From: Elusimicrobiota bacterium
GTDB taxonomy: Bacteria > Elusimicrobiota > Elusimicrobia > UBA1565
DNA: 64,000 nt
Assembly (NCBI GenBank): GCA_043819795.1
Contig: JBDREN010000222.1
Location: 1-64,000 of the forward strand
Reading direction: 5' to 3'
Below the pieces are notes generated by a model, which was given only the letters and a program-made list of their open reading frames with translations, made no database searches and was not told where the DNA came from. Numbering within the stretch: position 1 is the stretch's first letter; every line of letters starts with the position of its first letter. Below, piece by piece: positions 15,009 to 37,849 of this stretch. A program made the translations under genes and the position numbers.

Positions 15009-15018
15009 GATTCCCTCC

Positions 15019-15517: not shown

Positions 15518-16045
15518 ATGATGAAAGCGATCCAGGGCGATATCACGCTGGAAGCGGTGGATGCCATCGTCAACGCCGCCAATGAGAGCCTTCTCGGAGG
15601 GGGCGGGGTCGATGGAGCCATCCACCGCGCCGCCGGGCCGGAGCTTCTGGAGGAATGCCGGACCTTGGGCGGCTGTCCCACAGGTCAAGCCAGAGCTACC
15701 AAGGGGTACGGCCTGCCCGCGAAGTGGGTCATCCACACGGTGGGCCCGGTCTGGGGAGGGGGGAAGAGGGGCGAGGATGAGCTGCTCGCGTCGTGCTACC
15801 GCAATTCGCTGGAGTTGGCCCTGCGTAAGGGGGCTGCGTCGGTGGCTTTTCCCGCCATCAGCACCGGCGTATACCGCTTCCCGCCGGAGCGGGCCGCGCG
15901 GATCGCCCACCGCGAAGCGGCCGCCTTCCTTAAAAAACATCCGGAGATCGAGGTGCGTTTCGTCTGCTTCGACCGGGCCACCTGCGAGATCTACCGCGAG
16001 CTGTTGAACGCTTCCCTCCCCCACGGGGAGGGAAGCGGGTGTTGA
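15518..16045 (+). CDS. ymdB: Macrodomain protein, O-acetyl-ADP-ribose deacetylase (YmdB-like)
   Basis: [47 protein letters not shown]: all canonical motifs intact. Confidence 0.92.
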
Positions 16046-16147
16046 GGGGGCTAGCATAGGTCCTAGTCTCCGCTGGGCCCTAGGTCCCGGAGCGCGGCCG
16101 CCGCGGTGCTGTATAATGTGAGAAGATTTAAGGTCGGAGGTCCGTCC

Positions 16148-21372: not shown

Positions 21373-21410
21373 CCATGGGTGAGTGCCGTTGCCCTCGGAA
21401 ACGTTACAGG

Positions 21411-22874: not shown

Positions 22875-23815
22875 GGGGCGGACGGGCTCTTCAAGGAGAT
22901 GCGCTTGATCGAGCTTTTCTCCAGGTCCATGGTCCCGATCCCGAGCCCGGCGGCGGTCTTGAGATACGGGATCTCCCCGGGATCGAGCCCCAGTATCTTC
23001 GCGGCCGCCGTGTCGACGAGGACCATGTCCGTGGAGAGCAGCTGCATCTTCTTGAGCAGCAGGTCCTCGGTCGAGACGCCCCGGGGACCGTTCTTCATCA
23101 TCACGATGTAGGCGTCGATGACGTTGAGGTCCGGCCGCCTGACCAGGGGGAACTCGCCGATGGCCTGGTGCAGGCCCTTGCGGTGCCAGTAGCGCCTGTC
23201 CCAGACCACGCCCATGAGGTTTTTTAGGGCCGAGGTCATAAGGCCCCCGCCGTGGCTTTTCAGGACGGGCACGTTGATCACCACGTCGCAGTCCAGATAG
23301 AGCTCGTGGACGAGGACCTCCTTGAGGACCTTCGTCTTCTCGAGGGTCACCTTGCGGTAGTAGGCCTCTTTCTTGGCGGAGCGCATCTCGCCGCCGTTGT
23401 CCTTGACGGCCTTGGCAATCCCTGAGCGTTCGTAGCACTCTTCCTCTAGGTTGACCGGATGGTCGAAGGCGTAGACCTTCTTGGCCCCCGCCTCGTACGC
23501 CAGCGCGACAATCCTCCCAATCAGGTCGGGATTGGTGTTGGCCGCCTCGTTGGGAGTCTTGTTCCACCCGATATTGGGCTTGACGAGGACCGTCTGCCCC
23601 TTCTTGACGAAGCGTCCCATCCCCCCCAAGGCCTTGATGCCCGCCTCGAACATCTGCGCGGGGGAGCCGTCCTTGACCGCGACGAGATCGGGGAATTCCC
23701 GGGGCGGCTTCGGGCTCGTCTTCGCCCAGAGAAGCCTCCCGGGGAGCTTCGGGAAGAGCCCCACGGCGGCTCCGGAAAGAAGGACCTGAAGGAATCTCCG
23801 GCGGCTTGTCTTCAT
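22871..23815 (-). CDS. DUF362 family protein with Tat signal peptide
   Basis: MKTSRRRFL Tat motif; LGGMGRFVKKGQTVLVKPNIGW, ANTNP, INVPVLKSHG, ALKNLMG. Confidence 0.88.
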   Translation of the reverse strand: MKTSRRRFLQVLLSGAAVGLFPKLPGRLLWAKTSPKPPREFPDLVAVKDGSPAQMFEAGIKALGGMGRFVKKGQTVLVKPNIGWNKTPNEAANTNPDLIGRIVALAYEAGAKKVYAFDHPVNLEEECYERSGIAKAVKDNGGEMRSAKKEAYYRKVTLEKTKVLKEVLVHELYLDCDVVINVPVLKSHGGGLMTSALKNLMGVVWDRRYWHRKGLHQAIGEFPLVRRPDLNVIDAYIVMMKNGPRGVSTEDLLLKKMQLLSTDMVLVDTAAAKILGLDPGEIPYLKTAAGLGIGTMDLEKSSIKRISLKSPSAP

Positions 23816-23956
23816 AATGGATCGGCTCCCGTTCGATGGATGTCCCGGGCCGGGCGGGAGACATGTTAATTTGTTTTGGCGGCTCGTTACAAGCGAATGT
23901 CCGCTCACGCGAAGTTCTCGGCGGGTGTATTCTGTATACAGCCTTTTGACGATCTT

Positions 23957-23997
23957 GGATTATTGAAGAAATCCCTTCGGGATTTCTTCAATAATCC
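23957..23997. repeat. Perfect 19-bp inverted repeat with 3-nt loop
   Basis: GGATTATTGAAGAAATCCC-TTC-GGGATTTCTTCAATAATCC between divergent genes. Confidence 0.85.
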
Positions 23998-24064
23998 GCT
24001 TCGTTTTTCATTTGCCCGACTCTCGGGCAAAATGTTCTAATTCCCTCTCCGTGAGAGAGGAGCC

Positions 24065-25807
24065 ATGCAAGCGACCCAGGCCCTGAGCACAGGCATGATG
24101 GCGGCGCTGATGCTGCTCGTCGCCATCCTGGGCGGCTACATCGCCAAGTGGGTCCGGGTCCCGCGCATCGTCGCCCTGATCATCGGCGGAGTGGGGCTGA
24201 AGTACCTCATCGGCCTGTCCGAGCCCCCGGAGTACGCGCGGGACCTGGTCGCCCCCCTGGGATTCATCAACGAGCTCGCCCTGGGCCTCATCCTCTTCAT
24301 CATCGGCGGATTGTTCGAGGTGGCCCGCCTCAAGGCCACCCGGGGCGTGCTCAGGCGATTCAGCCCCTCCGAGATCGGCCTGACCGCCGCGCTCACGACC
24401 GTCGGTTGCGCGGCGGCGGCCTGGACCATCCCCGGCATGACCTTAACGCTGAGTTTGGCGACGGGCCTCTTGATGGGCTGCGCGGCCGTGGCCACGGCCC
24501 CCGCGGCCACCTGGTTCGTGCTGCAGGAGTATGACGCCAAAGGCCCCACGACCGACCACCTGCTCATCATGACGGGGATCAATAACTTGGTGAGCATCAT
24601 CTCCTTCCATACGGTGCTCATCGCCTTCATCGCTTTCGGAGCGCTGGAGGGTGTCCAAGGCTCGCCGAGCGCCTGGTGGCTGGACCTGTTCTTCGTCTCG
24701 GTCGGGAGCATCGGCCTGGGCGTGCTGCTGGGCCTCGCGCTGAGCGTGCTCCACGCCCGCCTGCCTCTGCGGGAGATGGTCCTGATGTTTTTCGCCACCC
24801 TGTTCCTCTTGTCGGCCGGCGACGATTGGATGCGGCATATGCTGGGCACCGCGTTCTATCCCATGGTGGCCTGTCTCGTGATGGGGGTGGCGTTCGCGAA
24901 CACGGCGCGGGACGCCGCGTATTTCGAGCGGACCCTCGAGACCGTGAGCATGCCGATCTTCGCGATCTTCTTCGTCCTGGCCGGCTACAATCTCCACCTG
25001 GAGGAGCTCCCCCACCTCGGGGTCCTGGGCGTGGTCTATCTGGCGATGCGGACGGCCGGGAAATACGTGGGCGTGCGGCGGGCGGTGCGCCGGTTCGGCG
25101 ACGGCGCTAAGCTCAAGGAGAACGCGGGGCTGGGGCTTCTCTGCCAAGCCGGGGTCGCGGTTTTCCTGGGCGCGTTCCTGGTGGAGTACTGGGCGCATCC
25201 CGTGGCGGCCAAGATCAATGCCGTCATCCTGGCGGCGGTCGCTATCTGTGAGCTGGCGGGGCCGCTGTTCGTCAAGCACGTGGTGATCGAGGCGGGCGAG
25301 GTCAAGGCGGTCACCCTTCTGAGGCCGGGCTTCCTCCATCGCACCTGGATCAGCCCCGGGCCGGGCCTGAGCAGCCTGGCCAAGGAGTACTCCGAGAAGA
25401 GCAAGCTCAAGGGGAAGATCGGCGAGCCCCTGACGGCCAAGCACCTCATGCGCACCAACATCCACTTTCTGCCCGCCACGGCCACCTTCGACGATGTCCT
25501 GACCTTCATCGAGCGCAGCCGCTTCCACGACTTCCCCGTGGCGGACGCGGAAGGCGCCTACCTGGGCATGGTGCATTTCCGCAAGGTCCGGGGCCAGTTC
25601 TACAACCCGGCCTCGGTCAAGCTGGTCACCGCGGGCTCTTTGGCGGACAAGGATACCCCCACGGTGATTCCCGGCACCGAGCTCTCCGAGCTGCTGGAGC
25701 TCTTCCACAAGCACAACCTGGGCGAGATCGCCGTCGTGGAAGACCAGCTCAGCAAGCGGCTCATCGGGCTCATCGAGCAGAGGGACCTGCTCCGAGTCCT
25801 GCATTAG
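24065..25807 (+). CDS. Cation:proton antiporter family protein with C-terminal CBS pair
   Basis: About 12 TM segments, ATAPAAT and A.GP.T motifs, FFVLAG, QAGVA; C-terminal CBS motifs (FPVAD...YLGMV; LIGLIEQRDLL); GAGGAG RBS. Confidence 0.85.
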   Translation: MQATQALSTGMMAALMLLVAILGGYIAKWVRVPRIVALIIGGVGLKYLIGLSEPPEYARDLVAPLGFINELALGLILFIIGGLFEVARLKATRGVLRRFSPSEIGLTAALTTVGCAAAAWTIPGMTLTLSLATGLLMGCAAVATAPAATWFVLQEYDAKGPTTDHLLIMTGINNLVSIISFHTVLIAFIAFGALEGVQGSPSAWWLDLFFVSVGSIGLGVLLGLALSVLHARLPLREMVLMFFATLFLLSAGDDWMRHMLGTAFYPMVACLVMGVAFANTARDAAYFERTLETVSMPIFAIFFVLAGYNLHLEELPHLGVLGVVYLAMRTAGKYVGVRRAVRRFGDGAKLKENAGLGLLCQAGVAVFLGAFLVEYWAHPVAAKINAVILAAVAICELAGPLFVKHVVIEAGEVKAVTLLRPGFLHRTWISPGPGLSSLAKEYSEKSKLKGKIGEPLTAKHLMRTNIHFLPATATFDDVLTFIERSRFHDFPVADAEGAYLGMVHFRKVRGQFYNPASVKLVTAGSLADKDTPTVIPGTELSELLELFHKHNLGEIAVVEDQLSKRLIGLIEQRDLLRVLH

Positions 25808-25866: not shown

Positions 25867-25895
25867 TTGACAACGGTCGTGAAACATGTTATAAT
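25867..25895 (+). promoter_or_regulatory. Consensus sigma70 promoter with extended -10
   Basis: TTGACA (25867-25872), 17 bp, TG-t-TATAAT (TATAAT 25890-25895), upstream of regulator 1. Confidence 0.85.
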
Positions 25896-25937
25896 TGCAT
25901 AAAAGCAATAAATAACCCAATAAAAAGACTGATTCCT

Positions 25938-26732
25938 ATGCCAAATACGGAAACGTACGAGACAGTGCTTTCTACCGGCCAAGCAGCCAAGCTGTGTTCG
26001 GTCACGCGCGATACTGTGCTCAAGTGGATCAAGCTGGGTAAGATTGAGGCCGTCCAGACACCCGGCGGGCATTACCGGATTAAGAGGGAGAGTCTGGCGC
26101 CCTACATCTCGATTCAGGGTGCTGTCCAGAAGCCAACGACGGGCGCGAAGCCGGTGACGTTCTGCTGGGAATACCATTCAGGCGGTGGGGATATCGGGCA
26201 TGACTGCCGGAAATGCATGGTATTCCAGGCCCGGGCTCAGAAATGCTTCTTGATGGCGGGGCTCGGCGAAAAAGGCGGTCATGCGGGGGTCCACTGCAAG
26301 GACAACTGCTATGACTGCGAGTACTTTCATCTGATCAGCGGAGGGGTCATCAACGTCCTGCTCGTCACCGAGAATGAGAATCTGAAGAAGTCGATCGAGG
26401 CGGGCATCAGCGATCGGATCGTTCTGAGGTTCGCGAGCTGCGAGTACGAGACCTCCTCGGTCGTCCACGATTTTAGGCCGGATTTCGTCATCGTGGACGA
26501 TTCGCTGGTCAGCTGCAGGCCCGAGGATATCTGCAGGCACCTGATCAAGGACTCCCGGGTCGGCGGCGCCCAGATCGTCATGACCGTATCCGAGGATCGC
26601 GGGAGGGCCACGCTGCAGGAGGGTGTCTGCGCTTCGATCGCCGCGCCGTTCAGCGCGCGGGAGATGGAGGAGAGCTTTCATCAGCTTAGACGGAGCCTGT
26701 GGGGCGGCTGCAAGCCGCCTTCGCGGGACTGA
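25938..26732 (+). CDS. Putative transcriptional regulator 1: excisionase/MerR-like HTH + Cys-rich domain + degenerate receiver
   Basis: LSTGQAAKLCSVTRDTVLKWIKLGKIEAVQTPGGHYRI; C-x13-C-x2-C-x9-C-x11-H-x4-C-x3-C-x2-C; FRPDFVIVD receiver-like fold. Confidence 0.85.
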   Translation: MPNTETYETVLSTGQAAKLCSVTRDTVLKWIKLGKIEAVQTPGGHYRIKRESLAPYISIQGAVQKPTTGAKPVTFCWEYHSGGGDIGHDCRKCMVFQARAQKCFLMAGLGEKGGHAGVHCKDNCYDCEYFHLISGGVINVLLVTENENLKKSIEAGISDRIVLRFASCEYETSSVVHDFRPDFVIVDDSLVSCRPEDICRHLIKDSRVGGAQIVMTVSEDRGRATLQEGVCASIAAPFSAREMEESFHQLRRSLWGGCKPPSRD

Positions 26733-26756
26733 GTCAATGCCCATGGAGAGACAGCG

Positions 26757-27281
26757 ATGAACGGGAAAAAGATCAACAACACCATGTTGCGCCTCGTCAA
26801 AGGCGACGTCACCGACAGGGAAGTGGACGCGTTCGTGTTCTACGCCAGGCACGACCTGCAGCTGGGCTCCGGGTACGGGACGGCGATCATCCAGCGGGGC
26901 GGGCCCGGCATCAAGGGTGAGCTCGATAAGATCGGCCCGATCGAGACCGGCGAGGCGGTCGTCACGGGCGCGGGTGAGATGAAGGCCAAGTACATCATCC
27001 ACGCGGTCGGGCCGCGTTTCCAGGAGGATGATGAAGAGCGCAAGCTTCGCGAGACCATGAAGGCGTCATTGAAGCGGGCCGAGCAGATTGGGGCCGAGAC
27101 GCTGGCCTTCCCTCCCATGGGCGCGGGTTTCTACGGGATACCGCTCGATCTCTGCAAGAAGGTCATGATCGAGGAGATCAAGAAGCATATCGAGGGGAAG
27201 ACCGGCCTCAAGCAAGTGGATATCGTCGTGATGGATTCGAGGGAGAACGCGCCTTTTGAGGAAGCGTTCAAGAGTCTGTAA
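26757..27281 (+). CDS. Macrodomain protein with degenerate catalytic motifs
   Basis: GDVT, GEAVVTGAG, IIHAVGP, AFPPMGAGFYG retained; NAAN replaced by FYAR and GGGV by GSGY. Confidence 0.88.
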   Translation: MNGKKINNTMLRLVKGDVTDREVDAFVFYARHDLQLGSGYGTAIIQRGGPGIKGELDKIGPIETGEAVVTGAGEMKAKYIIHAVGPRFQEDDEERKLRETMKASLKRAEQIGAETLAFPPMGAGFYGIPLDLCKKVMIEEIKKHIEGKTGLKQVDIVVMDSRENAPFEEAFKSL

Positions 27282-27293
27282 GGAGAGAGACTG

Positions 27294-27998
27294 ATGAGCG
27301 ACTTATTGTACTTCGCGGAGCACCGGCTGCAGGAGGCCGCCCTGGTCTGGATGGCCTCGGTCTACGCCGTACGGATATGGTGGCTGCTGCGCTTCAAAGA
27401 CGCCCGGGACAGGCAGGTCCCGACGGGCAGGGGGGTGGATGACCCTTCGACCGGCAAGCTCTACTCCCTGGCCAATATAGCCATGCCGTGGGCGATGGAG
27501 AGCACGCGGACGAGCCCCTTCTTCTACCTGCAGTTCGTGGTCTTTCACGTGGGAGTGACATTCGCCATAGGGCTGTCCTTCGTGATCCCGTACCTTCCGC
27601 AGGTGCTGGAGAGCGCGATCGTCGTTAAGATCATCCAGGCCTTCACCGCCGCCGCCTTTCTCATCGGCTGCGGGCGGATGATCCGCCGGTTCGTCAAGCC
27701 GGTCATGCGGTTGATCAGCACGCCGGACGACTATTTCTCGCTCGCCCTGCTGACCACCTGGTTCGTCTTCGCTTTCCTGGCGGCGCCCAACGACATCGCC
27801 CGGGGCGAGGGGATACTGCTGACGTACTTCTTCATGACGGCGTTCTTTCTGATGTACGTCCCGTTCAGCAAGATCTCGCACTACCTGTATTATCCGTTCA
27901 CGCGGTACTGGCTGGGCAGGACGCTCGCCCACCGCGGGGTGTTTCCGATACGCCTCCCCGCCGGTGAGCGCAGGGACGTCGAAACGGCGAAGTCATAA
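27294..27998 (+). CDS. NarI/DsrM/HmcE-like membrane subunit retaining two of four heme-ligand His
   Basis: Five TM segments, RR....MR.IS..DDY, PFSKISH; adjacent to a DsrK/HmcF-like gene; AAGGAG RBS. Confidence 0.8.
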   Translation: MSDLLYFAEHRLQEAALVWMASVYAVRIWWLLRFKDARDRQVPTGRGVDDPSTGKLYSLANIAMPWAMESTRTSPFFYLQFVVFHVGVTFAIGLSFVIPYLPQVLESAIVVKIIQAFTAAAFLIGCGRMIRRFVKPVMRLISTPDDYFSLALLTTWFVFAFLAAPNDIARGEGILLTYFFMTAFFLMYVPFSKISHYLYYPFTRYWLGRTLAHRGVFPIRLPAGERRDVETAKS

Positions 27999-28015
27999 TC
28001 CCGAGGAAACTTGAA

Positions 28016-29758
28016 ATGAGCGAGAAAAAAGAACGATCCCAGAAGGCGAAGAAGTTCCTCGAGAGGCTGCCTAAGAAGATGACGCGGCAGATCGTCGGCT
28101 CGCTCGCCGGCTGCGTGCACTGCGGCATGTGCACCGAGAGCTGCCACTATGTCCTCTCCAACCCCGAGGACCCCACGTTCGCTCCGGCGCATAAGGCCGA
28201 TCAACTGAGGAAGATATTCAAGCGCCACATCGACTGGACCGGCCGGGTCTTCCCCTGGTGGGTCGGGGCGAAGAGCGTCTTCACGGACGAGGACCTGGAG
28301 ACCCTGAAGGATATCGCGTTCGGGAAATGCACGAACTGCCGCCGCTGCACGTTCAATTGTCCGATGGGCGTGGACTTCGCGACCGCCAACAGGACTTTGC
28401 GGGGCCTTCTGGTCCACGTCGGGGTCATGCCGGAGGGCGTGTCGGTCGTCAGCAAGGACCAGTGGGAGATCGGCAACCAGATGGGGGTCCTCAAGGAGGA
28501 TTACCTCGAGACGCTGGAATGGATGTCGGACGAGCTCTCCGAGGAGCTCGGGGACCCGAAGGCCAGGATCCCGATCGATGTGGAGGGCGCCGACGTCGTC
28601 TATTCCATCAATCCCCGCGAGGTCAAATACGACCCGCGCTCCATCTCGGACGCGGCGAAGGTCTTTTGGGCCGCCGGGGAGAACTGGTGCATGCCCAGCG
28701 AGTGCTGGGACATGACCAACTTCGGCCTCTTCTCCGGAGACGACGACCTGGGCGGCACGGTCGGACGGCGCCTGTTCGAGAAGGTCATCGAGCTCAAAGG
28801 GAAGATGCTGGCCATCTCCGAATGCGGCCATGGGTACCGGTCCACCCGCTGCGAGGCCCAGAACTGGGCCGGAAAGGCCTACCCGATCCAGATGGAGAGC
28901 TCCGTCATCACCATGCTCCGCTATATTAAGGAAGGCAAGATCAAGGTGGACAAGAGCAAGAACCAGGGGATCTACACCTTCCACGATTCGTGCAATAACG
29001 CCCGCAGCTGCGGCCTGACCGAAGAGCCGCGCGAGCTGCTTGAGCTGGTGGTGCCCGAGTTCCGCGAGATGTATCCGAACCGGGCGGAGAACTACTGCTG
29101 CACGGGCGGCGGCGGCGCCATGTCCATGTCGGAATATACGCCCCGGCGTCTCAAATCCGCCAAGATCAAGGCCGACCAGCTCAAAGCCACGGGCGCCAAC
29201 GTCGTGGTCACGTCCTGCCACAACTGCGTGGACGGGCTCAACGACCTGATCCGGCACTACAAGCTGGACATGAAGGTGACGCAGCTGGTCAACCTGGCCG
29301 CCACGGCGCTCGTGATCCCCGCGAAGGTCGCGCCGCCGGTCGAGAAGGTGTTGGCGCTCGCGGGGAAGACGATCATGGTCGTCGACGACGAGCCGGACGC
29401 GCTCACCTACTTCAGCACCGTGTTCGCCGACAACGGGGCCAGGACCATCGAGGTCTCCGACAGCGGCGAGGTCCTGGCGATGGTCAAGAAGGAGAAGCCC
29501 GACCTCGTCACCCTGGATATCTCCATGCCGGGCAAGGACGGGGGCGTGGTCCTGGCGGAGCTTCGTAATGACCCCGAGACCGAGGCCACCAAGGTCTGCA
29601 TCATAACGGGCAAGCCGGAGCTCAGGAAGCTCATCTACGACCGTCCGGTGAGGCCGCCGGAGGGCTACCTGGACAAGCCGGTGGACGAGGAGAAGCTCCT
29701 GACCAACGTGCGTAAGATCCTGGAGCTTTCGCACGAGGCAGCCCCGGTGAAGGCCTGA
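28016..29758 (+). CDS. DsrK/HmcF/HdrD-like Fe-S oxidoreductase (CCG domain) fused to a C-terminal receiver domain
   Basis: CVHCGMCTESC, CTNCRRCTFNCP, SECGHG, HDSC, CCTGGGG, SCHNC; then VVDDEP...PDLVTLDISMP...IITG...LDKP. Confidence 0.9.
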   Translation: MSEKKERSQKAKKFLERLPKKMTRQIVGSLAGCVHCGMCTESCHYVLSNPEDPTFAPAHKADQLRKIFKRHIDWTGRVFPWWVGAKSVFTDEDLETLKDIAFGKCTNCRRCTFNCPMGVDFATANRTLRGLLVHVGVMPEGVSVVSKDQWEIGNQMGVLKEDYLETLEWMSDELSEELGDPKARIPIDVEGADVVYSINPREVKYDPRSISDAAKVFWAAGENWCMPSECWDMTNFGLFSGDDDLGGTVGRRLFEKVIELKGKMLAISECGHGYRSTRCEAQNWAGKAYPIQMESSVITMLRYIKEGKIKVDKSKNQGIYTFHDSCNNARSCGLTEEPRELLELVVPEFREMYPNRAENYCCTGGGGAMSMSEYTPRRLKSAKIKADQLKATGANVVVTSCHNCVDGLNDLIRHYKLDMKVTQLVNLAATALVIPAKVAPPVEKVLALAGKTIMVVDDEPDALTYFSTVFADNGARTIEVSDSGEVLAMVKKEKPDLVTLDISMPGKDGGVVLAELRNDPETEATKVCIITGKPELRKLIYDRPVRPPEGYLDKPVDEEKLLTNVRKILELSHEAAPVKA

Positions 29759-29773
29759 GCCCGGGGCGGCGGG

Positions 29774-30439
29774 GTGACGCAAATGGAGCGCAAAACGGTG
29801 AGCTTCAGGGGAGGGAGGTCCTACACGCTGGACCGATACGGCTTCCTCGAGTCGCCGGAGCAGTGGGACGAGGACTTCGCCGACGGGATGGCCGGGAAGC
29901 TGGGCATCTACGGGGGCCTGACCGAGCAGCACTGGAGCTTCATCCGGTATCTGAGGAAGAAGTTCCTCGAGGAGAACACTGTCCCCGTGGTCGTGATCGC
30001 CTGCGCCAACAACAAGCTCAGGCTGAGCCAGTTGAGGCGGCTCTTCCCGACGGGCTACCACCGGGGCGCGTGCAAGATCGCCGGCATCAACTACAAGTTC
30101 ATGTACGAGACCAACATCTGGCTCACGTACGAGTCCTACCCGGCGCTCAAGGCCGAGCACGATATGACGCCCGTGGGGTTCCTGAAGGACTTCGACAGGT
30201 GGGACGAGCGCTTCGCGGAGATCGTCGCCAGCGATTGGGACCTGCCCGAAGGGCTGACGGGCAGGCACTGGAAAATCATCCGATACCTGCGCGATTTCTA
30301 CAAGAACAACGAGAACGTGCCGACCATCTACGAGACTTGCAAGGCGAACGATCTCGATTTGGGCGAGCTGAGGCGGTTGTTTCCGGACGGCTACCGTCGC
30401 GGCGCGTGCCGCATCGCCGGACTGCCCTTCCTGGGTTAG
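29774..30439 (+). CDS. Tandem two-domain DsrC/TusE-family protein lacking the C-terminal CysA
   Basis: Two repeats of GFL....WDE.FA...LT..HW..IRYLR...LFP.GY.RGAC.IAG; start may be ATG 29783. Confidence 0.88.
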   Translation: MTQMERKTVSFRGGRSYTLDRYGFLESPEQWDEDFADGMAGKLGIYGGLTEQHWSFIRYLRKKFLEENTVPVVVIACANNKLRLSQLRRLFPTGYHRGACKIAGINYKFMYETNIWLTYESYPALKAEHDMTPVGFLKDFDRWDERFAEIVASDWDLPEGLTGRHWKIIRYLRDFYKNNENVPTIYETCKANDLDLGELRRLFPDGYRRGACRIAGLPFLG

Positions 30440-30455
30440 ACGTCCTTCCCGCCGT

Positions 30456-31235
30456 TCAAGCCCGCCTGGTCGCGTCCCCGCCCGGGCGTGAGAGTTCCCC
30501 GAGGAGCCGTTCGATGCGCTCGGCGGTGAACGGCGGCGTGATGGTCGGCGCGGCGATGCCTCCGAGACCGGACTCATGCCCTTCGCGGCGCGCGATGAGG
30601 ACTTTCACTCCGGGGATGCGGTCGTCGCGCGCGATGGAATCCGCCAGATCGCCTTCCCTCACCTCGGCCAGCGCGCTGTCCATCAGGACCACGGCCGGCC
30701 GGAAGGCGTCGATGACCGCCGAGCTTTCATAGCCGGAGCGGGCGAACCGCAGCGAGAGCTTCTCCCCGTCGGCGTGCTTCTCCAGGGCGCGGATGAGGGC
30801 CTTGTCGTTCGTGACGACGAGTACCGTGGTGGCCAGTCCTTGGCACGAGCGATAGAAGGCGCAGTCCCGGCAGTCCGTCTTGCAGAAGCGGCGTTCATGA
30901 CCGGCCGCCTGTTCGAGGCCGGCCAACTCGTAGCAACGCTCCGCCCTGGCGCGATATACCAGGCACTTGCTACAGGCGTCGGTCGGCGTGCCTCGCTGTC
31001 CGAAATACTCCCAGCAGTGCGGCGTCCGGGTTTTCCCGTTCCGCGAAACGGCGCATGTGCCGTCGGAGCTGCGGGCGAGGCCGAGGTCATCGCACGTATT
31101 CCGGGAGACCCGGTAATGGCCCCCTGTGGTCCGAATCGCCGGCAGCCTTCCTTTCTTAATCCACTTTAGCACAGCGTCGGGAGTCACCCCGCACAGCTTG
31201 GCTACCTGGCCTGTGGTGAGTAGATCTGAACCCAT
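30456..31235 (-). CDS. Putative transcriptional regulator 2: HTH + Cys-rich domain + degenerate receiver
   Basis: LTTGQVAKLCGVTPDAVLKWIKKGRLPAIRTTGGHYRV; same 7Cys/1His spacing; FRPAVVLMD. Confidence 0.85.
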   Translation of the reverse strand: MGSDLLTTGQVAKLCGVTPDAVLKWIKKGRLPAIRTTGGHYRVSRNTCDDLGLARSSDGTCAVSRNGKTRTPHCWEYFGQRGTPTDACSKCLVYRARAERCYELAGLEQAAGHERRFCKTDCRDCAFYRSCQGLATTVLVVTNDKALIRALEKHADGEKLSLRFARSGYESSAVIDAFRPAVVLMDSALAEVREGDLADSIARDDRIPGVKVLIARREGHESGLGGIAAPTITPPFTAERIERLLGELSRPGGDATRRA

Positions 31236-31553
31236 AAGTTATTCCTTGAGCATCTATGATTAATGGATATATTAGATAAAGTCAATAAATAATATTTTAC
31301 ACTAAACCGATAGAAAAGTCAAATTCTCTTGATGCGGTGGACGGGCGGGCTTTCCAGGCACCCAGATCGGTCGACGCCATCTCTCCTGGGCTGGCAGCCC
31401 AGGAGATTTCGCCATTCGAAATACTTTTGCCACGGGCCGCTAGGGGTCTTCCTTCGGCAGTGGCGTCTTTGCGTTTGTCTGAGATAGGGATAGCGTATGG
31501 TTTGAATCGGACTGGAATTTTGATGATATGGAAATTATCCATCAGTAGAAGTC

Positions 31554-31582
31554 TTGACGCGTTGGTGATGTGTATGTAAAAT
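31554..31582 (+). promoter_or_regulatory. Putative sigma70 promoter of the regulator 3 operon
   Basis: TTGACG (31554-31559), 17 bp, TAAAAT (31577-31582) in an AT-rich intergenic region. Confidence 0.7.
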
Positions 31583-31639
31583 ATGCAAAATTGGGACATA
31601 TTGTCATCGAATACATAAATAACATACACAACGAAGCAT

Positions 31640-32467
31640 ATGATTCAAAAAGAATCCGGTTGGCTTACGACGGGACAGGCGGCCAAGCTTTGTTCTGTCA
31701 CTCCCGACACGGTGCTGAAGTGGATTAGAAAGGGACGGTTGGAAGGGGTGAGGACCGCCGGCGGACACTACCGCGTGCGCCGGGATGACCTTGGCGGAAT
31801 GCGCACCGAGGGGCGGACCTGCGGGGCGGGTGCCCCGGGTATGGACCCCTTGATGCATAATCTGCGGTGCTGGGAATATCTCGCCGAGGGAGGCGTCGTC
31901 CGCGAGGCCTGCAAGACTTGCGTGGTCTATCGGGTGCGGGCGGCACGGTGCTTCCAGATGGCGGAGATGGGCCCCGGCCTCGGACATGCGAAACGCTTCT
32001 GCCGGTCGTCCTGCGAAGAATGCGTCTACTACCGGCGCGTACACGGGCTCGACACGAACGTGCTCGTCGTCACGCCGGATGAGGACCTCATCAAGCGGCT
32101 GAAGGCGCAGGAGCGAAAGGGGATGGCGCTGCGCTTCGCCCGCAACGGCTACGAGGCCTCGACCGTCGTGCAGGCCTTCCTGCCGGCGTTCGCTGTCGTC
32201 GACCAGCGGGTGATCGAGGCCGGGGGCGAAGGCCTCCTGGACTGCCTGTCGGGCGACGAGCGCCTGCCGGGCCTGAAGATCATCGTCGCCGCGGTGAAGG
32301 ACGCCCCTGGCCCGGAGGCGTGGGACGGGCGCTCGGTGGCCGGCGTGGTTGAGAAGCCGTTCGGCGTGGATGAGATCGCTTCGGTGATCGGCAGCTTCCC
32401 GGTCGAGTCCGCCGGACCGGAGAACGGCACGCCTCATTGCGAAGGACCGGACAAGGAGGATCCATGA
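31640..32467 (+). CDS. Putative transcriptional regulator 3: HTH + Cys-rich domain + degenerate receiver
   Basis: LTTGQAAKLCSVTPDTVLKWIRKGRLEGVRTAGGHYRV; same 7Cys/1His spacing; FLPAFAVVD...VEKPF. Confidence 0.85.
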   Translation: MIQKESGWLTTGQAAKLCSVTPDTVLKWIRKGRLEGVRTAGGHYRVRRDDLGGMRTEGRTCGAGAPGMDPLMHNLRCWEYLAEGGVVREACKTCVVYRVRAARCFQMAEMGPGLGHAKRFCRSSCEECVYYRRVHGLDTNVLVVTPDEDLIKRLKAQERKGMALRFARNGYEASTVVQAFLPAFAVVDQRVIEAGGEGLLDCLSGDERLPGLKIIVAAVKDAPGPEAWDGRSVAGVVEKPFGVDEIASVIGSFPVESAGPENGTPHCEGPDKEDP

Positions 32468-32781
32468 CGAAGGTGGAGGGTGCGGTCGAAAGCGGCGAGT
32501 TCGATGACGATGGTTTCCTCAAGACGATGTCCGGGTGGGACCAGGAGATGGCGCAAGAGCTCGCCCGGGAGCACGACATCGGCCCGCTGACGGACGAACA
32601 CTGGAAGGTGATCAAGTTCGTGCAGATGTACTACAAGACCAACGGCACGGGCCCGTCGGTCTTGAAGCTGCATAAGGAGACCGGCCTGAGCTCGGCCGAC
32701 ATATGCCGCCTCTTCCCGTGCGGGATGGTGAAGGGGGCGTATCGGCTGGCCGGCCTGCCGCGCCCTTCGGGGTGCGCGTAG
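32464..32781 (+). CDS. DsrC/TusE-family sulfur relay protein with CysA only (TusE-type)
   Basis: DDDGFL...W...LTDEHWKVI...LFPCGMVKGAYRLAGLPRPSGCA; ATG overlaps the regulator 3 stop (ATGA); AGGAGG RBS. Confidence 0.88.
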   Translation: MTKVEGAVESGEFDDDGFLKTMSGWDQEMAQELAREHDIGPLTDEHWKVIKFVQMYYKTNGTGPSVLKLHKETGLSSADICRLFPCGMVKGAYRLAGLPRPSGCA

Positions 32782-32809
32782 GACTCAAGACGAACGGAGG
32801 AGGGAGACT

Positions 32810-33529
32810 ATGGATATCGTGAGGTTTATGGCGGGAGGGGTGCTCCCGTACGTCGCGCTTGCCGTATTCGTCGGCGGCATGACCTACAAGATACGCGCGT
32901 GGACGACGCTGGCGTCGCCGCCGATGACGCTTTTCCCGGCTCCCGTGACCGGAGAGGCCAACATCCTCAATACCGTCCAGGAGGCGGTGCTGTTCAAGAG
33001 CCTGTTCAAAGGCGACCGGGTGCTGTGGGCCTTCGCGTGGGTGTTCCACGCGGTACTGGCGCTCATCGTCATCGGGCACTTCAGGGTCGTCGCCAATGTG
33101 GACGTGATCCTCATGAAGCTGGGGATGAGCGAAGAGGCCATCGCCGGCATGTCCAGCGGCGTCGGAGGGGCGGCCGGGGTCGTGATCCTCGCCGCGGCGT
33201 TTTTCCTTCTGGCCCGCAGGTTCGTGGTGCCCCGGGTGGCGGAGATTACGGGAGCCAGCGACTACCTCGCGCTGCTGCTTGTCGCGGCGATCATCATCAC
33301 CGGCAACATGATGCGTTTCGGAGCGGAGCATTTCGACCTGGCGTTGACGCGCGACTACTTCGCCGCGCTCGCGACGTTCTCCGGCGCCGCGAAAGCGGCC
33401 GCGCTGGATAACGGCGTATTCCTGGTCCACATGTGCCTCGCGCTCTCGCTGGTCATGGTCATGCCGTTCAGCAAGCTCCTGCATTTCGGCGGGATCTTTT
33501 TCACGCATCAGCTTGTCCGGAAGCATTGA
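32810..33529 (+). CDS. NarI/DsrM-like di-heme cytochrome b membrane subunit
   Basis: Five TMs; FH-x9-H and H-x17-H (PFSKLLH) with all four His; LFKSLF and DY motifs as in DsrM. Confidence 0.88.
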   Translation: MDIVRFMAGGVLPYVALAVFVGGMTYKIRAWTTLASPPMTLFPAPVTGEANILNTVQEAVLFKSLFKGDRVLWAFAWVFHAVLALIVIGHFRVVANVDVILMKLGMSEEAIAGMSSGVGGAAGVVILAAAFFLLARRFVVPRVAEITGASDYLALLLVAAIIITGNMMRFGAEHFDLALTRDYFAALATFSGAAKAAALDNGVFLVHMCLALSLVMVMPFSKLLHFGGIFFTHQLVRKH

Positions 33530-33568
33530 GGCGAGTCCGGATCAACCGACTCGGAGAAGGAGGCCAGG

Positions 33569-34996
33569 ATGTCCAAGCAGAAGGTGAACGATAAAGTCGC
33601 CGGCGCGGCCGGCAAGAAGCGGCAGGCGCCCGAGTCCGACGCGGCGGGCAAGAAGAACGGGCAGCCGTCGCCCGCGGACGTGAAGAAGACCGTCGTGGAC
33701 GCCGTCAAGGCCATCAAGAACGGCCCGCGGGCGATGAAGATGTACATGGAAATGTGCGCCAAGTGCGGGACGTGCGCCTCCGTTTGCCCGGTCTACTACG
33801 GCAAGAGCGAGAAGCGGTACAACCCGGCCGAGAGGACGGACCTGATCCGGCGCATCTACAACAAGTACTGCACGACCGGGGGAAAGCTTTTCGGGAAGCT
33901 CGCCGGAGCGGAGGACTTCAATCCGGAGGACATCCATGAGTGGAAGCAGATCTTCTACGAGTGCACGGGCTGCCGCCGGTGCGCCACGTTCTGCCCCTTC
34001 GGGATCGATCACTCGGTGATCACGCGAAAGGGCCGGGCCATCCTCGACACGCTGGGGCTCACGCCCGAGACGATGGCGAAGGTCGTGAAGATCTCGCTCG
34101 AGACGGGCAACACCGACGGCGCCGGCGCGGCGGCCTTCAAGGAGGCCATCAACTTCCTCGAGGAGGAGATGGAGGAGGAGAACGGCGTCAAGATCAAGAT
34201 CCCGGTCGACGTCGTGGGCGCCGAATACTTCTACGTGCCGCCCTCCGGGGACGTGCTCGTGAACCCGGAGGCCACCATGGGCGTCGCCAAGGTGTTCCAC
34301 GCCCTGGGGATGGCCGACAAGTGGACGATGAGCTCGAAGTGCTTCGACGGCGCCAACTACGGGCTCTTCACCGGCAACGACGCCCACATGAAGGCGGACA
34401 ACAAGCTGTACGTCGAGGAGACGAAGCGCCTCGGCGCCAAGACCCTGCTGATGGGCGAGTGCGGCCACGCCCACCGCATCATGAAGATGATGATGGAGAA
34501 GGCGAGCTGGTGGGGCAAGCTTCCCTTCCAGATCACAAACTGCATGCAGTGGACCGCCGCGCGCGTCCGGGAGGGCCGGCTGCGGTTCGACAAGAGCAAG
34601 AACAAGATGCCGGTCACCTATCACGACCCGTGCAACTTCGGACGCTCGTGCGGCATCACGGAGGAGCCGCGGGAGATCCTCAAGGCCGCGTGCTCCGACT
34701 TCCGCGAGATGACTCCCAACCGGTCGGAGAACTGGTGTTGCGGCGGCGGCGGCGGGCTCTCCGCCATGGACGACATCCGGGAGTTCCGGATGACGGTCTC
34801 CGGCACGAAGAAGCTGGAGCAGGTCCGGGCGACCGGCGCGAAGTACGTGGCCACCGCCTGCTCCAACTGCAAGCGCCAGCTGACCCAGCTCATGGAGCAT
34901 CACAAAGAGGAGATCGAGGTCGGCGGGGTCCACGACATGCTTTCGCGGGCGATCCTTATCGACGGGAAGGCGGCGGACCGGAAGGATCATCGTTAG
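33569..34996 (+). CDS. DsrK-like Fe-S oxidoreductase (CCG domain)
   Basis: CAKCGTCASVCP, FYECTGCRRCATFCPFGID, GANYGLF, GECGH, YHDPCN, WCCGGGGG, ACSNC. Confidence 0.9.
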   Translation: MSKQKVNDKVAGAAGKKRQAPESDAAGKKNGQPSPADVKKTVVDAVKAIKNGPRAMKMYMEMCAKCGTCASVCPVYYGKSEKRYNPAERTDLIRRIYNKYCTTGGKLFGKLAGAEDFNPEDIHEWKQIFYECTGCRRCATFCPFGIDHSVITRKGRAILDTLGLTPETMAKVVKISLETGNTDGAGAAAFKEAINFLEEEMEEENGVKIKIPVDVVGAEYFYVPPSGDVLVNPEATMGVAKVFHALGMADKWTMSSKCFDGANYGLFTGNDAHMKADNKLYVEETKRLGAKTLLMGECGHAHRIMKMMMEKASWWGKLPFQITNCMQWTAARVREGRLRFDKSKNKMPVTYHDPCNFGRSCGITEEPREILKAACSDFREMTPNRSENWCCGGGGGLSAMDDIREFRMTVSGTKKLEQVRATGAKYVATACSNCKRQLTQLMEHHKEEIEVGGVHDMLSRAILIDGKAADRKDHR

Positions 34997-35017
34997 ATCC
35001 TCCGGCAGGCTCTGAAA

Positions 35018-35048
35018 GACAGGCCTCCCCCCCACGGGGAGGCCTGTC
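35018..35048 (+). terminator. Hairpin, probable terminator or mRNA-stabilising stem
   Basis: 13-bp stem GACAGGCCTCCCC/GGGGAGGCCTGTC about 20 bp after the DsrK-like stop; weak U-tract. Confidence 0.5.
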
Positions 35049-35155
35049 GCTTGTCGGGGGGCCGATCGCGCCCTTCCCCCGCACCCTTCCCCCGCGGCCT
35101 GGCGTCACCTCCTTAGGTCTGCTATCCTGGAGGAGGCGGGGACCGTCGCCGTTTC

Positions 35156-36592
35156 ATGCCGGGGGAAGCGATGGACGAGAGATTCTATGAGCAGTGCTTC
35201 GACGAGATGCCGTGCTATGTCTCGGTGCAGGACAAGGACCTGCGCATCCTCAAGACCAACCGGCGCTTCAAGGAGCACTTCGGCGAGGGAGTGGGGGAGC
35301 ATTGCTTCAAGATCTACAAGTGCCGGGAAGAGAGATGCCCCGAGTGCTCCGTGGCCAGGACCTTCGAGGACGGGAAGAGCCACGGGAGCGAGGAGGTCGT
35401 CCGGACCCGGAACGGGGAGCCGGTCTCGGTCATCGTGTACACCTGTCCGCTTCGCGACGAGCGGGGCGAGGTGGTCTCGGTGCTGGAGATGTCCACCGAT
35501 ATCACGGAGGTCAAAAGGCTCCAGAAGAAGCTCGACGAGAGCCAGAAGCTCCACGGCCTGCTGTTCTCGGAAGCGCCGTGCTACATCTCGGTCCAAGACC
35601 GCGACTTCAAGATCGTCCACGCCAACCGTCGCTTCAAGGAGGACTTCGGCGAGGAGGATGGGCACTGCTACGAGATATACAAGCACCGGACGGAGCGGTG
35701 TCTGGACTGCCCCGTCGCCCTGACGTTCGAGGACGGGCGGTCCCATCACAGCGAAGAGGTCGTGACGTCCCGTTCGGGCGAGCGGGTCAACGTGGTCGTG
35801 CGCACGGCGCCCATCCGGGATGAGAAGGGCGAGATCGTCCAGGTGATGGAGATGTCCACCAACATCACCGAGATCCGTCAGCTGCAGGAGCAGCTCACCT
35901 CCCTGGGGCTGCTGGTGAGCTCGATCTCCCACGGCGTCAAGGCGCTCCTGACCGGCCTGCGGGGCGGCATCTATATGCTGAAGACCGGCTACAAGAAGCG
36001 GGACGAGGCCCGCATCACCCGGGCGTGGGAGATGGTCGAGGGGAACGAGGCCCGGATTCGCAGCATGATCGGCGACATCCTGTACTACGCCAAGGAGCGG
36101 GACTTCGACATGCAGCCCGTGGACGCGGCCAAGCTCCTGAAGGACGCCGGCGGCCTGCTCCAGGCTCGGGCCGCGAGCCTTGGCGTCGCCTTGGATCTCC
36201 GGTCCGACGCCGCCGCCGGAGAGTTCGACGGCGACGGCGCGGCTTTGCTGTCCGCGCTGGTTAATCTCGTCGAGAATTCCTTGGACGCCTGCCGCGTGGA
36301 TAAAAAGAAGCCGGCTCACGCCGTCACGGTCGGGGTCAGGAGCGACAAGGAGCACATCCTTTTCGAGGTCTCGGACAACGGGATCGGTATGGACCAGGAG
36401 ACCCGCGAGAAGGCGTTCAGCCTCTTTTTCTCCTCCAAGGGGACCGAGGGGACGGGCCTGGGGCTGTTCATCGCCAACAAGATCGTGACGAAGCACCTCG
36501 GCACGATAGCCATCGACTCGACGGAGGGGGAAGGCACCCGCTTCACAGTGAGGCTCCCGAGGAGATGGTCTGCGCCCGAGGAAAAAAGCTAG
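35156..36592 (+). CDS. Cytoplasmic PAS-PAS sensor histidine kinase
   Basis: Two duplicated PAS domains ending EMSTDITE/EMSTNITE; H-box SISHGVK; NLVENSLDA, DNGIG, FFSSKG, GTGLGL; no TM; start may be ATG 35171. Confidence 0.92.
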   Translation: MPGEAMDERFYEQCFDEMPCYVSVQDKDLRILKTNRRFKEHFGEGVGEHCFKIYKCREERCPECSVARTFEDGKSHGSEEVVRTRNGEPVSVIVYTCPLRDERGEVVSVLEMSTDITEVKRLQKKLDESQKLHGLLFSEAPCYISVQDRDFKIVHANRRFKEDFGEEDGHCYEIYKHRTERCLDCPVALTFEDGRSHHSEEVVTSRSGERVNVVVRTAPIRDEKGEIVQVMEMSTNITEIRQLQEQLTSLGLLVSSISHGVKALLTGLRGGIYMLKTGYKKRDEARITRAWEMVEGNEARIRSMIGDILYYAKERDFDMQPVDAAKLLKDAGGLLQARAASLGVALDLRSDAAAGEFDGDGAALLSALVNLVENSLDACRVDKKKPAHAVTVGVRSDKEHILFEVSDNGIGMDQETREKAFSLFFSSKGTEGTGLGLFIANKIVTKHLGTIAIDSTEGEGTRFTVRLPRRWSAPEEKS

Positions 36593-36626
36593 AATCCTCC
36601 CCATCCGATATCAGAGGTGGGCAGGC

Positions 36627-37010
36627 ATGGCGAAGAAGATCCTGGTCGTGGACGATGAGCCGGATACCGTCACGTTCCTGACGACGCTGCTTGGCGACAA
36701 CGGTTACGAAACGTTCTCCGCGGGCGACGGAGACGAGGCGAAGGGCGTGCTGGAGAGGGAAAAGCCGGACTTGGTCACGCTCGACATCGTCATGCCGAAC
36801 AAGTCGGGAGTGAGGCTGTTCAGGGAAATGAAGCAAAGCCCCGACCTCAAGGACATCCCCGTCCTCTTCGTTTCCGGGCTGGGGGATTTCAAGAACTTCA
36901 TGCAGAAGATCAAGCCCCTGCCGGACCCGACCTCCTTCGTCGAGAAGCCGCTGGACGAGAAGGTCGTGCTGGAGGCCGTCCAGAAGGCTCTCTCCCCCGC
37001 GGGCGCGTAG
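36627..37010 (+). CDS. Single-domain response regulator (receiver only)
   Basis: ILVVDDEP...PDLVTLDIVMP...FVSG...VEKP, all conserved receiver residues present. Confidence 0.93.
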   Translation: MAKKILVVDDEPDTVTFLTTLLGDNGYETFSAGDGDEAKGVLEREKPDLVTLDIVMPNKSGVRLFREMKQSPDLKDIPVLFVSGLGDFKNFMQKIKPLPDPTSFVEKPLDEKVVLEAVQKALSPAGA

Positions 37011-37129: not shown

Positions 37130-37792
37130 ATGGATAGCAAGCCTACCAAAGAGGACTCCCTGCGGTACTTCGCGGGGTTGCTGGAGAGGAACGAGGAGCA
37201 CGCGCGGGCGCACGGCGCGTCGTACGGCGCGCTCAAGAGCGGCCAGCGGCCCAAGGTCGTGATCGCCTTCTGCTCCGACTCGCGGCTGCAGACCTGCATC
37301 TTCGGCGACAGCCTGGACTTGGTAAACAACCTTTTCGTCGGCCGGGATATCGGCAACACGTATTCGGACAGCGAGGGCGCGGTGGACTACGCCCTCCGGC
37401 ACCTGGGCGTCCCGGTGCTGTTCATCATGGGGCATACGGGGTGCGGCGCGGCCGAGGCGGCGCGCGGCGATTATGCTGGCGAGACCGAGGCGATCCGCGC
37501 GCGGCTGGGCAGGCTGAAGACCGGCGAAGACGAGGCGCACGATCCGGAGGCGAACGTGGACGCCCAGGTCGGGCTCGCCCTGCGGCGATATCCGGAGAAG
37601 GTGTCGAGCGGCGATCTGGTCGTCATCGGGGGGGTCTTCGACCTCGTGGGCCATTATGGGGGTCTGCCGGGCAAGGTCTACCTGACCAACCTCAACGGGG
37701 CGACCGGCGTCGGACGGATCAAGGAGGGGCTTTCCCGCTGCGGGGCCTTCCCGGACGGGCTGCTGGACGCGACCGTCAGAAGACTTCCTTGA
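37130..37792 (+). CDS. Beta-class carbonic anhydrase
   Basis: GQRP....CSDSR and GHTGCGA zinc-ligand motifs; DYA..HL. Confidence 0.85.
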   Translation: MDSKPTKEDSLRYFAGLLERNEEHARAHGASYGALKSGQRPKVVIAFCSDSRLQTCIFGDSLDLVNNLFVGRDIGNTYSDSEGAVDYALRHLGVPVLFIMGHTGCGAAEAARGDYAGETEAIRARLGRLKTGEDEAHDPEANVDAQVGLALRRYPEKVSSGDLVVIGGVFDLVGHYGGLPGKVYLTNLNGATGVGRIKEGLSRCGAFPDGLLDATVRRLP

Positions 37793-37819: not shown

Positions 37820-37849
37820 TTGACATCCGCCGCTCGATAGAATTATGAT
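37820..37849 (+). promoter_or_regulatory. Putative sigma70 promoter of qmoCAB
   Basis: TTGACA (37820-37825), 18 bp, TATGAT (37844-37849). Confidence 0.6.

Follow-up and report, generated by a model that had tools for sequence, protein, structure and literature searches.

The subject of this report is a block of twelve genes (positions 25867 to 37010) in a 64,000-nt stretch of DNA from an Elusimicrobiota bacterium (GenBank assembly GCA_043819795.1, contig JBDREN010000222.1), which we refer to as the window. The genome is 90% complete, and the nearest relatives come from Elusimicrobiota. An initial annotation, made from the DNA letters without database searches, had read the block as two parallel redox units assembled from duplicated Dsr parts; all twelve open reading frames (ORFs) are present in the order and on the strands described there, and profile scans detected the expected domains. 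We hold with moderate confidence that the block comprises two accessory modules of dsrAB-carrying bacteria, one inside the other, and that each of them is switched by one cysteine-rich regulator family acting on a 9-bp repeat.

Module A consists of regulator 1 (25938 to 26732, + strand; PF12728), a macrodomain protein (26757 to 27281, +; PF01661), an HmcE/TmcC-like membrane anchor with one predicted haem (anchor A; 27294 to 27998, +), an iron-sulfur enzyme from the TmcB/HmcF side that is fused to a complete receiver domain (enzyme A; 28016 to 29758, +), a soluble PAS-PAS histidine kinase (35156 to 36592, +; alternative start, 35171), and a single-domain, DVU0259-like receiver (36627 to 37010, +; NF045717, 116 bits with a cut-off of 160). 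Module B is nested between the enzyme::receiver fusion and the kinase. It comprises a tandem DsrC-fold protein without a C-terminal CysA arm (29783 to 30439, +; PF04358 twice), the divergent regulator 2 (30456 to 31235, −), regulator 3 (31640 to 32467, +), a three-cysteine DsrC variant whose start overlaps the stop of regulator 3 in an ATGA (32464 to 32781, +), a NarI-like, predicted dihaem DsrM paralog (anchor B; 32810 to 33529, +; PF02665), and a DsrK paralog (enzyme B; 33569 to 34996, +). As stated in the initial annotation, the units have sigma70-like promoters of their own, at 25867 to 25895 (+, 12/12 consensus matches) for regulator 1 and module A, at 31554 to 31582 (+, 10/12) for regulator 3 and module B, and at 31322 to 31294 (−) for regulator 2; the region holds 10 such sites, compared to 2.2 ± 1.4 in shuffles. 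Regulator 1 most likely starts at 25938 rather than at 25863, because the longer ORF would begin 5' of its own promoter.

Recurrence of the modules in dsrAB genomes

An alignment of the tandem DsrC-fold protein was scanned against 47 of the 64 parts of a species-genome collection, in which 244 relatives were confirmed; the best 80 loci were taken, 53 of them close and 27 distant. Among the close loci, 40 have an enzyme B orthologue, 36 the DsrC variant, 38 a regulator, and 10 enzyme A, and all 10 loci with enzyme A also have the variant. The commonest order is regulator, variant, anchor B, enzyme B, tandem protein, and the variant stands directly 5' of the pair of anchor B and enzyme B in 41 of the 48 loci with room to see it. 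None of the 27 distant loci (L056 to L082) carries a gene of module A or B. They hold a second tandem DsrC-fold family, which mostly has CysB in the first half only. It is found in Zixibacteria, Ignavibacteria, and others, with as many as three consecutive copies, and often lies near HdrA/QmoA-like genes.

In a genome of the host's family (G122, 97% complete), module A forms an unbroken row directly behind dsrP: regulator 1, macrodomain, anchor A, enzyme A with its fused receiver, kinase, and receiver. This genome contains canonical DsrC only, with no DsrC variant. Furthermore, the kinase directly follows enzyme A in 18 of 24 loci, and the other 6 show the same insertion as the window (L003, which displays the left half of the nested arrangement) or contig ends and gaps. 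Because module A is uninterrupted in G122 and the kinase follows enzyme A elsewhere, module B was inserted into module A in the window. The boundaries drawn in the initial annotation have to be moved, since the tandem protein travels with module B, and kinase and receiver travel with module A. The tandem protein as the partner of module A was rejected on the same grounds, module A of G122 having none, and the proposal that each unit has its own DsrC partner is not supported, as module A occurs without one in G122 and in Desulfobacterota loci. A recent duplication from the genome's own dsrMKC was rejected as well, and the phrase "duplicated Dsr parts" is not supported: the paralogs are old, with 27 to 37% identity within the genome and 66 to 89% identity to orthologues in other phyla, and the tree agrees. 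Gemmatimonadota and Pirellulaceae combine modules A and B in different orders, and in Desulfobacterota loci an Rrf2 or sigma54 activator occupies the position of regulator 1. Six enzyme A orthologues have no fused receiver, and the macrodomain is missing from several module A loci. The block recurs across phyla and is best explained as two separately inherited modules.

The dsrA gene was searched for in 50 of the 80 tandem genomes (the close clade minus three short loci) and was found above the cut-off in 45. Of the five genomes without it, G009 carries dsrB plus a fragment of dsrA, canonical dsrK is present in G025 and G036, G007 is small and yielded no dsrB, and neither dsrAB nor canonical dsrK was found in G046. 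In the neighbourhood check proposed in the initial annotation, these genes also occur together elsewhere, almost only in dsrAB genomes; none of the three findings that would have refuted its proposal was made. As a background, dsrA is present in 2 of 251 genomes of the host's own phylum, and the regulator family occurs in the same 2. In Gemmatimonadota, dsrA was found in 6 of 251 genomes and enzyme B in 2, both of them dsrA positive and one being the seed genome. In Desulfobacterota, where 99 of 201 genomes have dsrA, enzyme A was found in 14 genomes, 12 of which have dsrA (in one case divided between contigs), and enzyme B in 5, of which 3 have dsrA; the seed is counted here. Kin genomes are not independent of one another in these counts. 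The modules are accessory, as most dsrAB genomes in these samples are without them. In G046, the module B locus L106 holds at about 6000 to 16200, close together, genes for a sulfite-reductase-like protein joined to TusA, for a protein like cysteine desulfurases, and for a two-Cys DsrC. The five module genomes checked for oxidases (without a control set) all have a bd oxidase, and four have a subunit of the haem-copper oxidase family, which fits life at redox boundaries.

Enzyme pairs and DsrC-fold proteins

Enzyme B reaches 366 bits with the DsrK model (NF045796), below the cut-off of 400, and groups with canonical DsrK in a quick, unrooted tree of 63 sequences, in which 16 chosen module B orthologues were kept and the others left out; the value for this grouping in the Shimodaira-Hasegawa-like approximate likelihood ratio test (SH-aLRT) is 90, which is weak, and the program warns of long branches. 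Two [4Fe-4S] motifs, the ECGH cysteine (Cys298), and a full, all-Cys CCG motif are kept in 35/35 rows. Anchor B has four invariant His residues in 37/37 rows, as the initial annotation had noted, and in all 37 it shows the NarI-like pattern of an open quinol site (Gly in place of Arg, Gly-His, a continuous helix, and no loop insertion), with the second Arg kept. The window's canonical dsrM has the blocked pattern, unlike anchor B. The criteria for open and blocked sites were taken from the text of a preprint (10.64898/2026.08.25.746951), which distinguishes DsrM-1, with its open, NarI-like quinol site, from DsrM-2. According to the same source, opening of the trisulfide in the DsrMKJOP structure is linked to three residues, a Phe that acts as a wedge, a His, and an Asp that serves as a ligand, and a CysA-only DsrC suffices for DsrMKJOP in vivo. 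At these three positions, enzyme B has Leu, Thr, and Cys, and enzyme A has Lys, Gln, and Cys; their replacement in both paralogs points to a different sulfur species. Neither the block nor the module loci contain dsrJOP, with the exception of G594, in which the pair is located within the dsr operon. No solved DsrK structure was found in the copy of the PDB that was searched.

Module B may be a quinol-oxidising reductase of the DsrMK type. Electrons would pass from menaquinol via the dihaem anchor to a non-cubane cluster, and their target would be a persulfide or disulfide at the C-terminal Cys of the DsrC variant (or of canonical DsrC). Module B would then be a second, JOP-independent outlet for protein-bound sulfur.

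The initial annotation had called the DsrC variant CysA only and the tandem protein CysB only. The variant does keep CysA (C104), with Tyr or Phe at the position of CysB, but C81 and C86 are also invariant (35/35 rows). It has the DsrC fold (TM 0.85 to D. vulgaris DsrC, 2v4j_C), scores above the cut-off of PF04358, and, with Tyr at CysB, differs from the C-terminal motif of DiSCo in two places, where the limit is one. Likewise, CysB is present in the tandem protein, but a second conserved Cys accompanies it in each half (119/120 homologues); 119 of the 120 have no Cys in the last six residues, and the pair of CysA and CysB is lacking. The scores of the DsrC-fold proteins with the TusE equivalog lie below its cut-off. 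Neither the set of C81, C86, and C104 nor the four-Cys, two-domain form of DsrC was found described in the literature searched, which lacked the defining review of 2014. The complementarity of variant and tandem protein in CysA and CysB, together with their joint presence in 36 of the 53 close loci, would suit a split-cysteine pair, in which the variant gives CysA and the tandem protein gives CysB to an intermolecular trisulfide or disulfide that is reduced by the module B enzyme. However, the variant has two invariant Cys of its own beside the lost CysB position, and tandem protein and enzyme pair occur without the variant in L017, L048, L049, and L102; we regard such a pair as very unlikely. 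It is more plausible to us that the tandem protein serves as an accessory Cys-bearing partner of module B.

Enzyme A is a different case. The label DsrK-like, given to both enzymes in the initial annotation, has to be corrected for module A, the pair of which scores nearer to HmcE/TmcC and HmcF/TmcB: enzyme A scores 317 bits with HmcF (cut-off, 750), 311 with TmcB (cut-off, 735), and 219 with DsrK (cut-off, 400), anchor A scores 53 with HmcE (cut-off, 275) and 45 with TmcC (cut-off, 240), and in the tree described above enzyme A groups with TmcB (SH-aLRT, 99). Two [4Fe-4S] motifs, the ECGH cysteine (Cys270), and the full CCG motif are kept in 8/8 locus rows and in 120/120 top homologues. The same holds for the acidic pair, the Asp (Asp501), the Thr/Ser, and the Lys of the fused receiver in the 120 top homologues, and the lone receiver also has the acidic pair, phosphoacceptor Asp, Thr/Ser, and Lys of canonical receivers. 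Since no output domain follows the fused receiver, enzyme A itself is the likely target. Anchor A has two invariant His (H85 and H196; 11/11), in agreement with the initial annotation; they align with H80 and H225 of anchor B, and we take this pair to be the site of the cytoplasm-side haem by NarI numbering.

The Asn-Ala-Ala-Asn motif and the GGG loop are criteria of MacroD-type ADP-ribose hydrolases, and both are missing from 12/12 module A macrodomains, which the initial annotation had rightly called degenerate. Binding of adenosine 5'-phosphosulfate or ADP instead of ADP-ribose is a matter of speculation. A second macrodomain gene of the window (15452 to 16045), 33% identical to the one in module A, looks canonical, with Asn and GGG loop present.

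The kinase has four conserved Cys in each PAS domain, and the triad among them is kept in 13/13 module A kinases. This triad aligns with the C-x8-C-x3-C triad of a sigma54 PAS protein of the same genome, which has the spacing of OrpR, the [4Fe-4S] redox sensor of D. vulgaris (PMC8359166). The spacing in module A is C-x10-C-x2-C plus the fourth Cys and thus differs from OrpR. It is likely that the two PAS domains hold redox-sensing Fe-S clusters, and module A may be a membrane-tethered, one-haem thiol-redox enzyme whose activity the adjacent kinase sets by phosphorylating the fused receiver.

The genome has three more DsrK/TmcB-like modules, all on contig C49 at about 50400 to 78700 (L001 and L002), two of them with similar kinases and receivers. 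The first has HmcB/HmcC-like partners after a Cys-PAS sigma54 activator. The second lies behind a MerR regulator (P0361) with a two-CW-like Cys domain, and a MerR-led pair of this type also adjoins module A in several other genomes. The third, a TmcD-TmcC-TmcB-HmcB-HmcC-HmcA hybrid, comes with divergent receivers and also with a Cys-PAS kinase and Rrf2.

Their presence would be consistent with ordinary accessory respiration, in which modules A and B are stripped Hmc/Tmc/DsrMK paralogs that either feed canonical DsrC or drain it, the regulators act locally like Rrf1 and Rrf2, and the DsrC variants are dispensable. Extra dsrMK paralogs are indeed known (PMC6018796, PMC10504309, PMC10861901) and are described as "not uncommon" near dsrAB (PMC6018796); rrf1 and rrf2 regulate hmc, an Rrf2 or sigma54 activator occupies the position of regulator 1 in Desulfobacterota, and the pair of G594 has no variant beside it. 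However, the variant with its three invariant cysteines precedes the pair in most loci, the fused receiver has lost none of its signature residues, and an anchor with one haem would presumably not span the membrane in the manner of the dihaem HmcE-type anchors. We consider ordinary accessory respiration a quite unlikely account of the block as a whole.

Regulators, predicted operator, and proposed mechanism

Regulators 1 to 3 are 36 to 44% identical and belong to one family of at least 893 proteins, which combines an excisionase/BldC-like helix-turn-helix (HTH), a seven-Cys domain, and a receiver fold. Each of the seven Cys is conserved in at least 174 of 176 rows. The receiver fold is atypical, with Asp188 in 175/176 rows, no Thr/Ser, and Lys in the regulator 3 type only. 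The clades of the family follow locus position: regulator 1 is in the clade of those preceding the macrodomain, and the regulator 2 type precedes the tandem protein in 14 Gemmatimonadota-type loci. The tie between the Cys-rich regulator and the DsrC variant, which the initial annotation had suspected, is supported by 11 of 119 homologues in which the two are fused, and through direct contact the variant probably passes its redox or sulfur state on to regulator 3. Neither the modules nor the regulator family were found described in the literature searched, outside of which lie most subscription journals and two key reviews of 2011 and 2014. The HTH-Cys7-receiver regulators are an uncharacterised family with a predicted, testable operator, and the modules are of the DsrMK/HmcEF kind.

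Motif discovery in 60 upstream regions gave a direct repeat with the consensus YCCATAAAA. A held-out matrix was trained on 36 regions, one per locus, without the window and its two Elusimicrobiota relatives; its mean score is 11.5 at a spacing of 9 bp, whereas matrices retrained for six other spacings give 7.0 to 9.3 and dinucleotide shuffles give about 6. In the genome of the window, this matrix ranks a site at 25896 to 25925 (+) 4th and a site at 31264 to 31315, which overlaps the promoter of regulator 2, 5th among about 10 million positions (scores, 10.4 to 10.9); the three sites ranked higher are not near redox genes and are probably due to chance. A weaker repeat follows the promoter of regulator 3 (31603 to 31629, +; score, 6.4; rank, 132). 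In an independent metagenome scan, a score of at least 8 was reached in 29 of 73 upstream regions and in 8 of 365 shuffles, again with a peak at 9 bp. Upstream of module-adjacent Rrf2 genes, 1 of 10 regions reaches a score of 8. The 9-bp direct repeat fits the HTH type, because BldC binds 9-bp direct repeats as head-to-tail multimers at promoters (PMC5859096), and we consider it the likely binding site of the regulator family, as predicted from these alignments and scans. As the site at 25896 starts on the base directly after the −10 box, its position suggests that the sign of regulation is repression.

The initial annotation went further and had the units control dsr, qmo, and apr. In the window, the block is followed by genes for a beta-carbonic anhydrase (37130 to 37792; not found in related module loci), qmoCAB, and dsrABDNLCTMKJOP, including the canonical dsrC, dsrM, and dsrK of the genome, with aprBA and sat on the opposite strand; the dsr, apr, and sat genes among these owe their names to sequence and to related searches, and not to a profile scan in every case. 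The position just upstream of qmo and dsr is therefore as described, but the carbonic anhydrase gene and a separate promoter (37820 to 37849) intervene. Directly 5' of the block (20302 to 25807) lie genes for an MsrB-MsrA fusion, for a membrane polyferredoxin, accompanied by a DUF362 gene, and for a cation/proton antiporter that carries CBS domains.

If the modules were sensors and the regulators master switches of dsr, qmo, apr, and sat transcription, the repeat should be found at these genes. However, the promoter regions of dsrA, qmoC, apr, and sat in this genome score 2.6 to 7.0 (ranks 77 to 320 or lower), in contrast to the scores above 10 at the regulators' own promoters. Among the 600-bp regions 5' of dsrA, a score of at least 8 is reached in 1 of 20 module genomes and in 2 of 20 controls (P = 0.25); the controls were dsrA genomes without a strong match to either module enzyme, not screened for the regulator, and dsrA often lies inside an operon. 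Furthermore, only 2 of 7 dsr-bearing Gemmatimonadota of the sample have the module B enzyme. Control of dsr, qmo, and apr is hence not supported in this genome, and the regulon is likely local.

Support for master switches comes from elsewhere. A metagenome scan for the regulator (33 of 64 parts; best 80 of 407 loci kept, 79 analysed) gave 36 loci with module A or B genes, 21 with only core dsr, sat, or apr genes, 7 of at least 4 kb with neither, and 15 short ones. The stand-alone regulator of the core sulfur clusters is divergent from sat in 17 loci, in two of which it lies directly ahead of aprBA-qmoAB. In L180 to L203 and L208, the regulator is divergent from sat (often followed by a dsrMK paralog pair) and convergent with dsrD-dsrN. 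Several of the seven loci with neither adjoin genes for a multihaem cytochrome, a molybdopterin enzyme, a haemerythrin, or CCG enzymes, and one lacks redox genes nearby. In L204, L209, L210, L214, and L218, members of the family adjoin multihaem cytochromes, haemerythrin, a molybdopterin enzyme, or a long CCG enzyme. These neighbourhoods suggest a wider role of the regulator family in anaerobic respiration. Inspection by eye shows a short element that the sat and dsrD promoters of the stand-alone clade share after their −10 boxes, but a matrix trained on this clade fixed on the −10 box itself, with spacings of 8, 9, and 11 scoring alike and held-out dsrD promoters mostly at shuffle level. In the Acidobacteriota metagenome-assembled genome (MAG) CO124, gene 304, annotated as excisionase family and with the same Cys pattern by eye, lies between sat and dsrN-dsrD, and sat and dsrD are strongly anoxic specific (log2 values of 6.3 and 6.9, oxic versus anoxic; PMC10564751). 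At least one dsrAB bacterium shuts down the whole sulfate reduction pathway in oxic phases, and the main text of that paper names no regulator (PMC10564751). Gene 304 itself, however, is weakly expressed, with a log2 change of 2.7 that is not significant (adjusted P = 0.18; PMC10564751). The oxidases of the module genomes would also suit such a switch. On balance, we hold master switches to be unlikely.

Several observations weigh against our reading of two accessory modules, each under a regulator of this family. Of the 48 loci that extend far enough to show the DsrC variant, 7 have the pair of module B without it, which speaks against an obligate substrate, and in G594 (L101) the pair sits between canonical dsrC and dsrMKJOP. 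The five fusions of regulator and variant seen in genome loci all belong to one Gemmatimonadota clade, and since the genes overlap by ATGA and the fusions lie in one clade, a read-through fusion needs no contact of the two proteins. The Cys domain resembles a two-CW domain by eye only; it is modelled at low confidence (predicted local distance difference test, pLDDT, under 50 over much of the domain) and has no match in NCBIfam and no usable match in the Atlas, and its seven Cys may instead have a Zn-binding or structural role. The A. fulgidus residue positions behind the Phe wedge comparison were mapped by motif via the window's DsrK, not by aligning the A. fulgidus sequence. Some of the held-out metagenome loci are close kin of training loci, and the repeat is AT rich and weak in the stand-alone clade. 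Finally, G046 and G701 carry module genes, and no dsrAB or canonical dsrK was found in them.

In a bolder version of our model, the regulators would be dedicated to switching the transcription of sulfate respiration in dsrAB phyla that are facultative and mostly uncultured. They would form polymers on 9-bp repeats and sense how much sulfur the three-cysteine DsrC carries; a private, quinol-driven DsrMK would keep this DsrC balanced with the respiratory chain, and the kinase-gated HdrD-type enzyme would be the phosphorylation input. We offer this version tentatively and find it doubtful as a whole; if it were true, a signalling circuit would have been made out of a respiratory sulfur carrier and its reductase.

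Oxygen respiration is also present in many recently discovered dsrAB bacteria, and the regulator family is a candidate switch of redox genes in oxygen-tolerant sulfate reducers, for which a concrete family, a predicted operator, and an organism with the gene beside sat (MAG CO124) can now be named. Two orphan clades of DsrK/TmcB paralogs, highly conserved across phyla, are assigned likely partners, and enzyme A appears, from its conserved residues, to be a respiratory-type Fe-S enzyme with a built-in phosphorylation site. For marker-gene surveys, it should be kept in mind that the module paralogs and DsrC variants are not the canonical pathway.

Comparison with known systems

The closest relative of module B is DsrMK(JOP) with DsrC. 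Both combine a haem anchor with an Fe-S subunit that contains the ECGH cysteine and a single non-cubane cluster (PMC10861901; 10.64898/2026.08.25.746951), anchor B fits the JOP-less, NarI-like DsrM-1, and DsrC-fold proteins are encoded nearby. In contrast to DsrMK(JOP), both module enzymes stay below the DsrK cut-off and have Cys in place of the Asp ligand and no Phe wedge, and the modules are without dsrJOP. The DsrC-fold proteins share the fold with the DsrC/TusE/RspA family (named in PMC8477390), in which loss of one C-terminal Cys is known, but neither of them has the pair of CysA and CysB of canonical DsrC.

Module A is closer to the Hmc and Tmc complexes of Desulfovibrio: enzyme A groups with TmcB, the receivers score best with the DVU0259 model, and Rrf2 precedes module A in Desulfobacterota. 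Unlike Hmc and Tmc, module A has no cytochrome c, no HmcB to HmcD, and no TmcD; it has one His pair, the enzyme::receiver fusion, and a macrodomain, and its scores are under half of the cut-offs. The block was rejected as an Hmc operon, with no hmcA to hmcD, and as a Tmc operon, the TmcD that passes its cut-off lying on contig C49, as does the TmcB/TmcD/HmcA-type cluster of the genome. Scores and gene content thus confirm that the block does not match an Hmc or Tmc operon gene for gene.

The kinase of module A resembles the Fe-S PAS sensors OrpR (PMC8359166) and NreB (PMC13478379), in which a soluble PAS domain carries a conserved Cys triad in a signalling protein of anaerobes; it differs, as judged from the sequence, in having two Cys-PAS domains and another Cys spacing. 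The regulators, finally, are like BldC in having a MerR-like winged HTH without coiled coil and 9-bp direct repeats at promoters (PMC5859096), but they score 33, 45, and 42 bits with the BldC model (NF033787; cut-off, 77), their repeat has another sequence, and they carry an additional seven-Cys domain and receiver fold.

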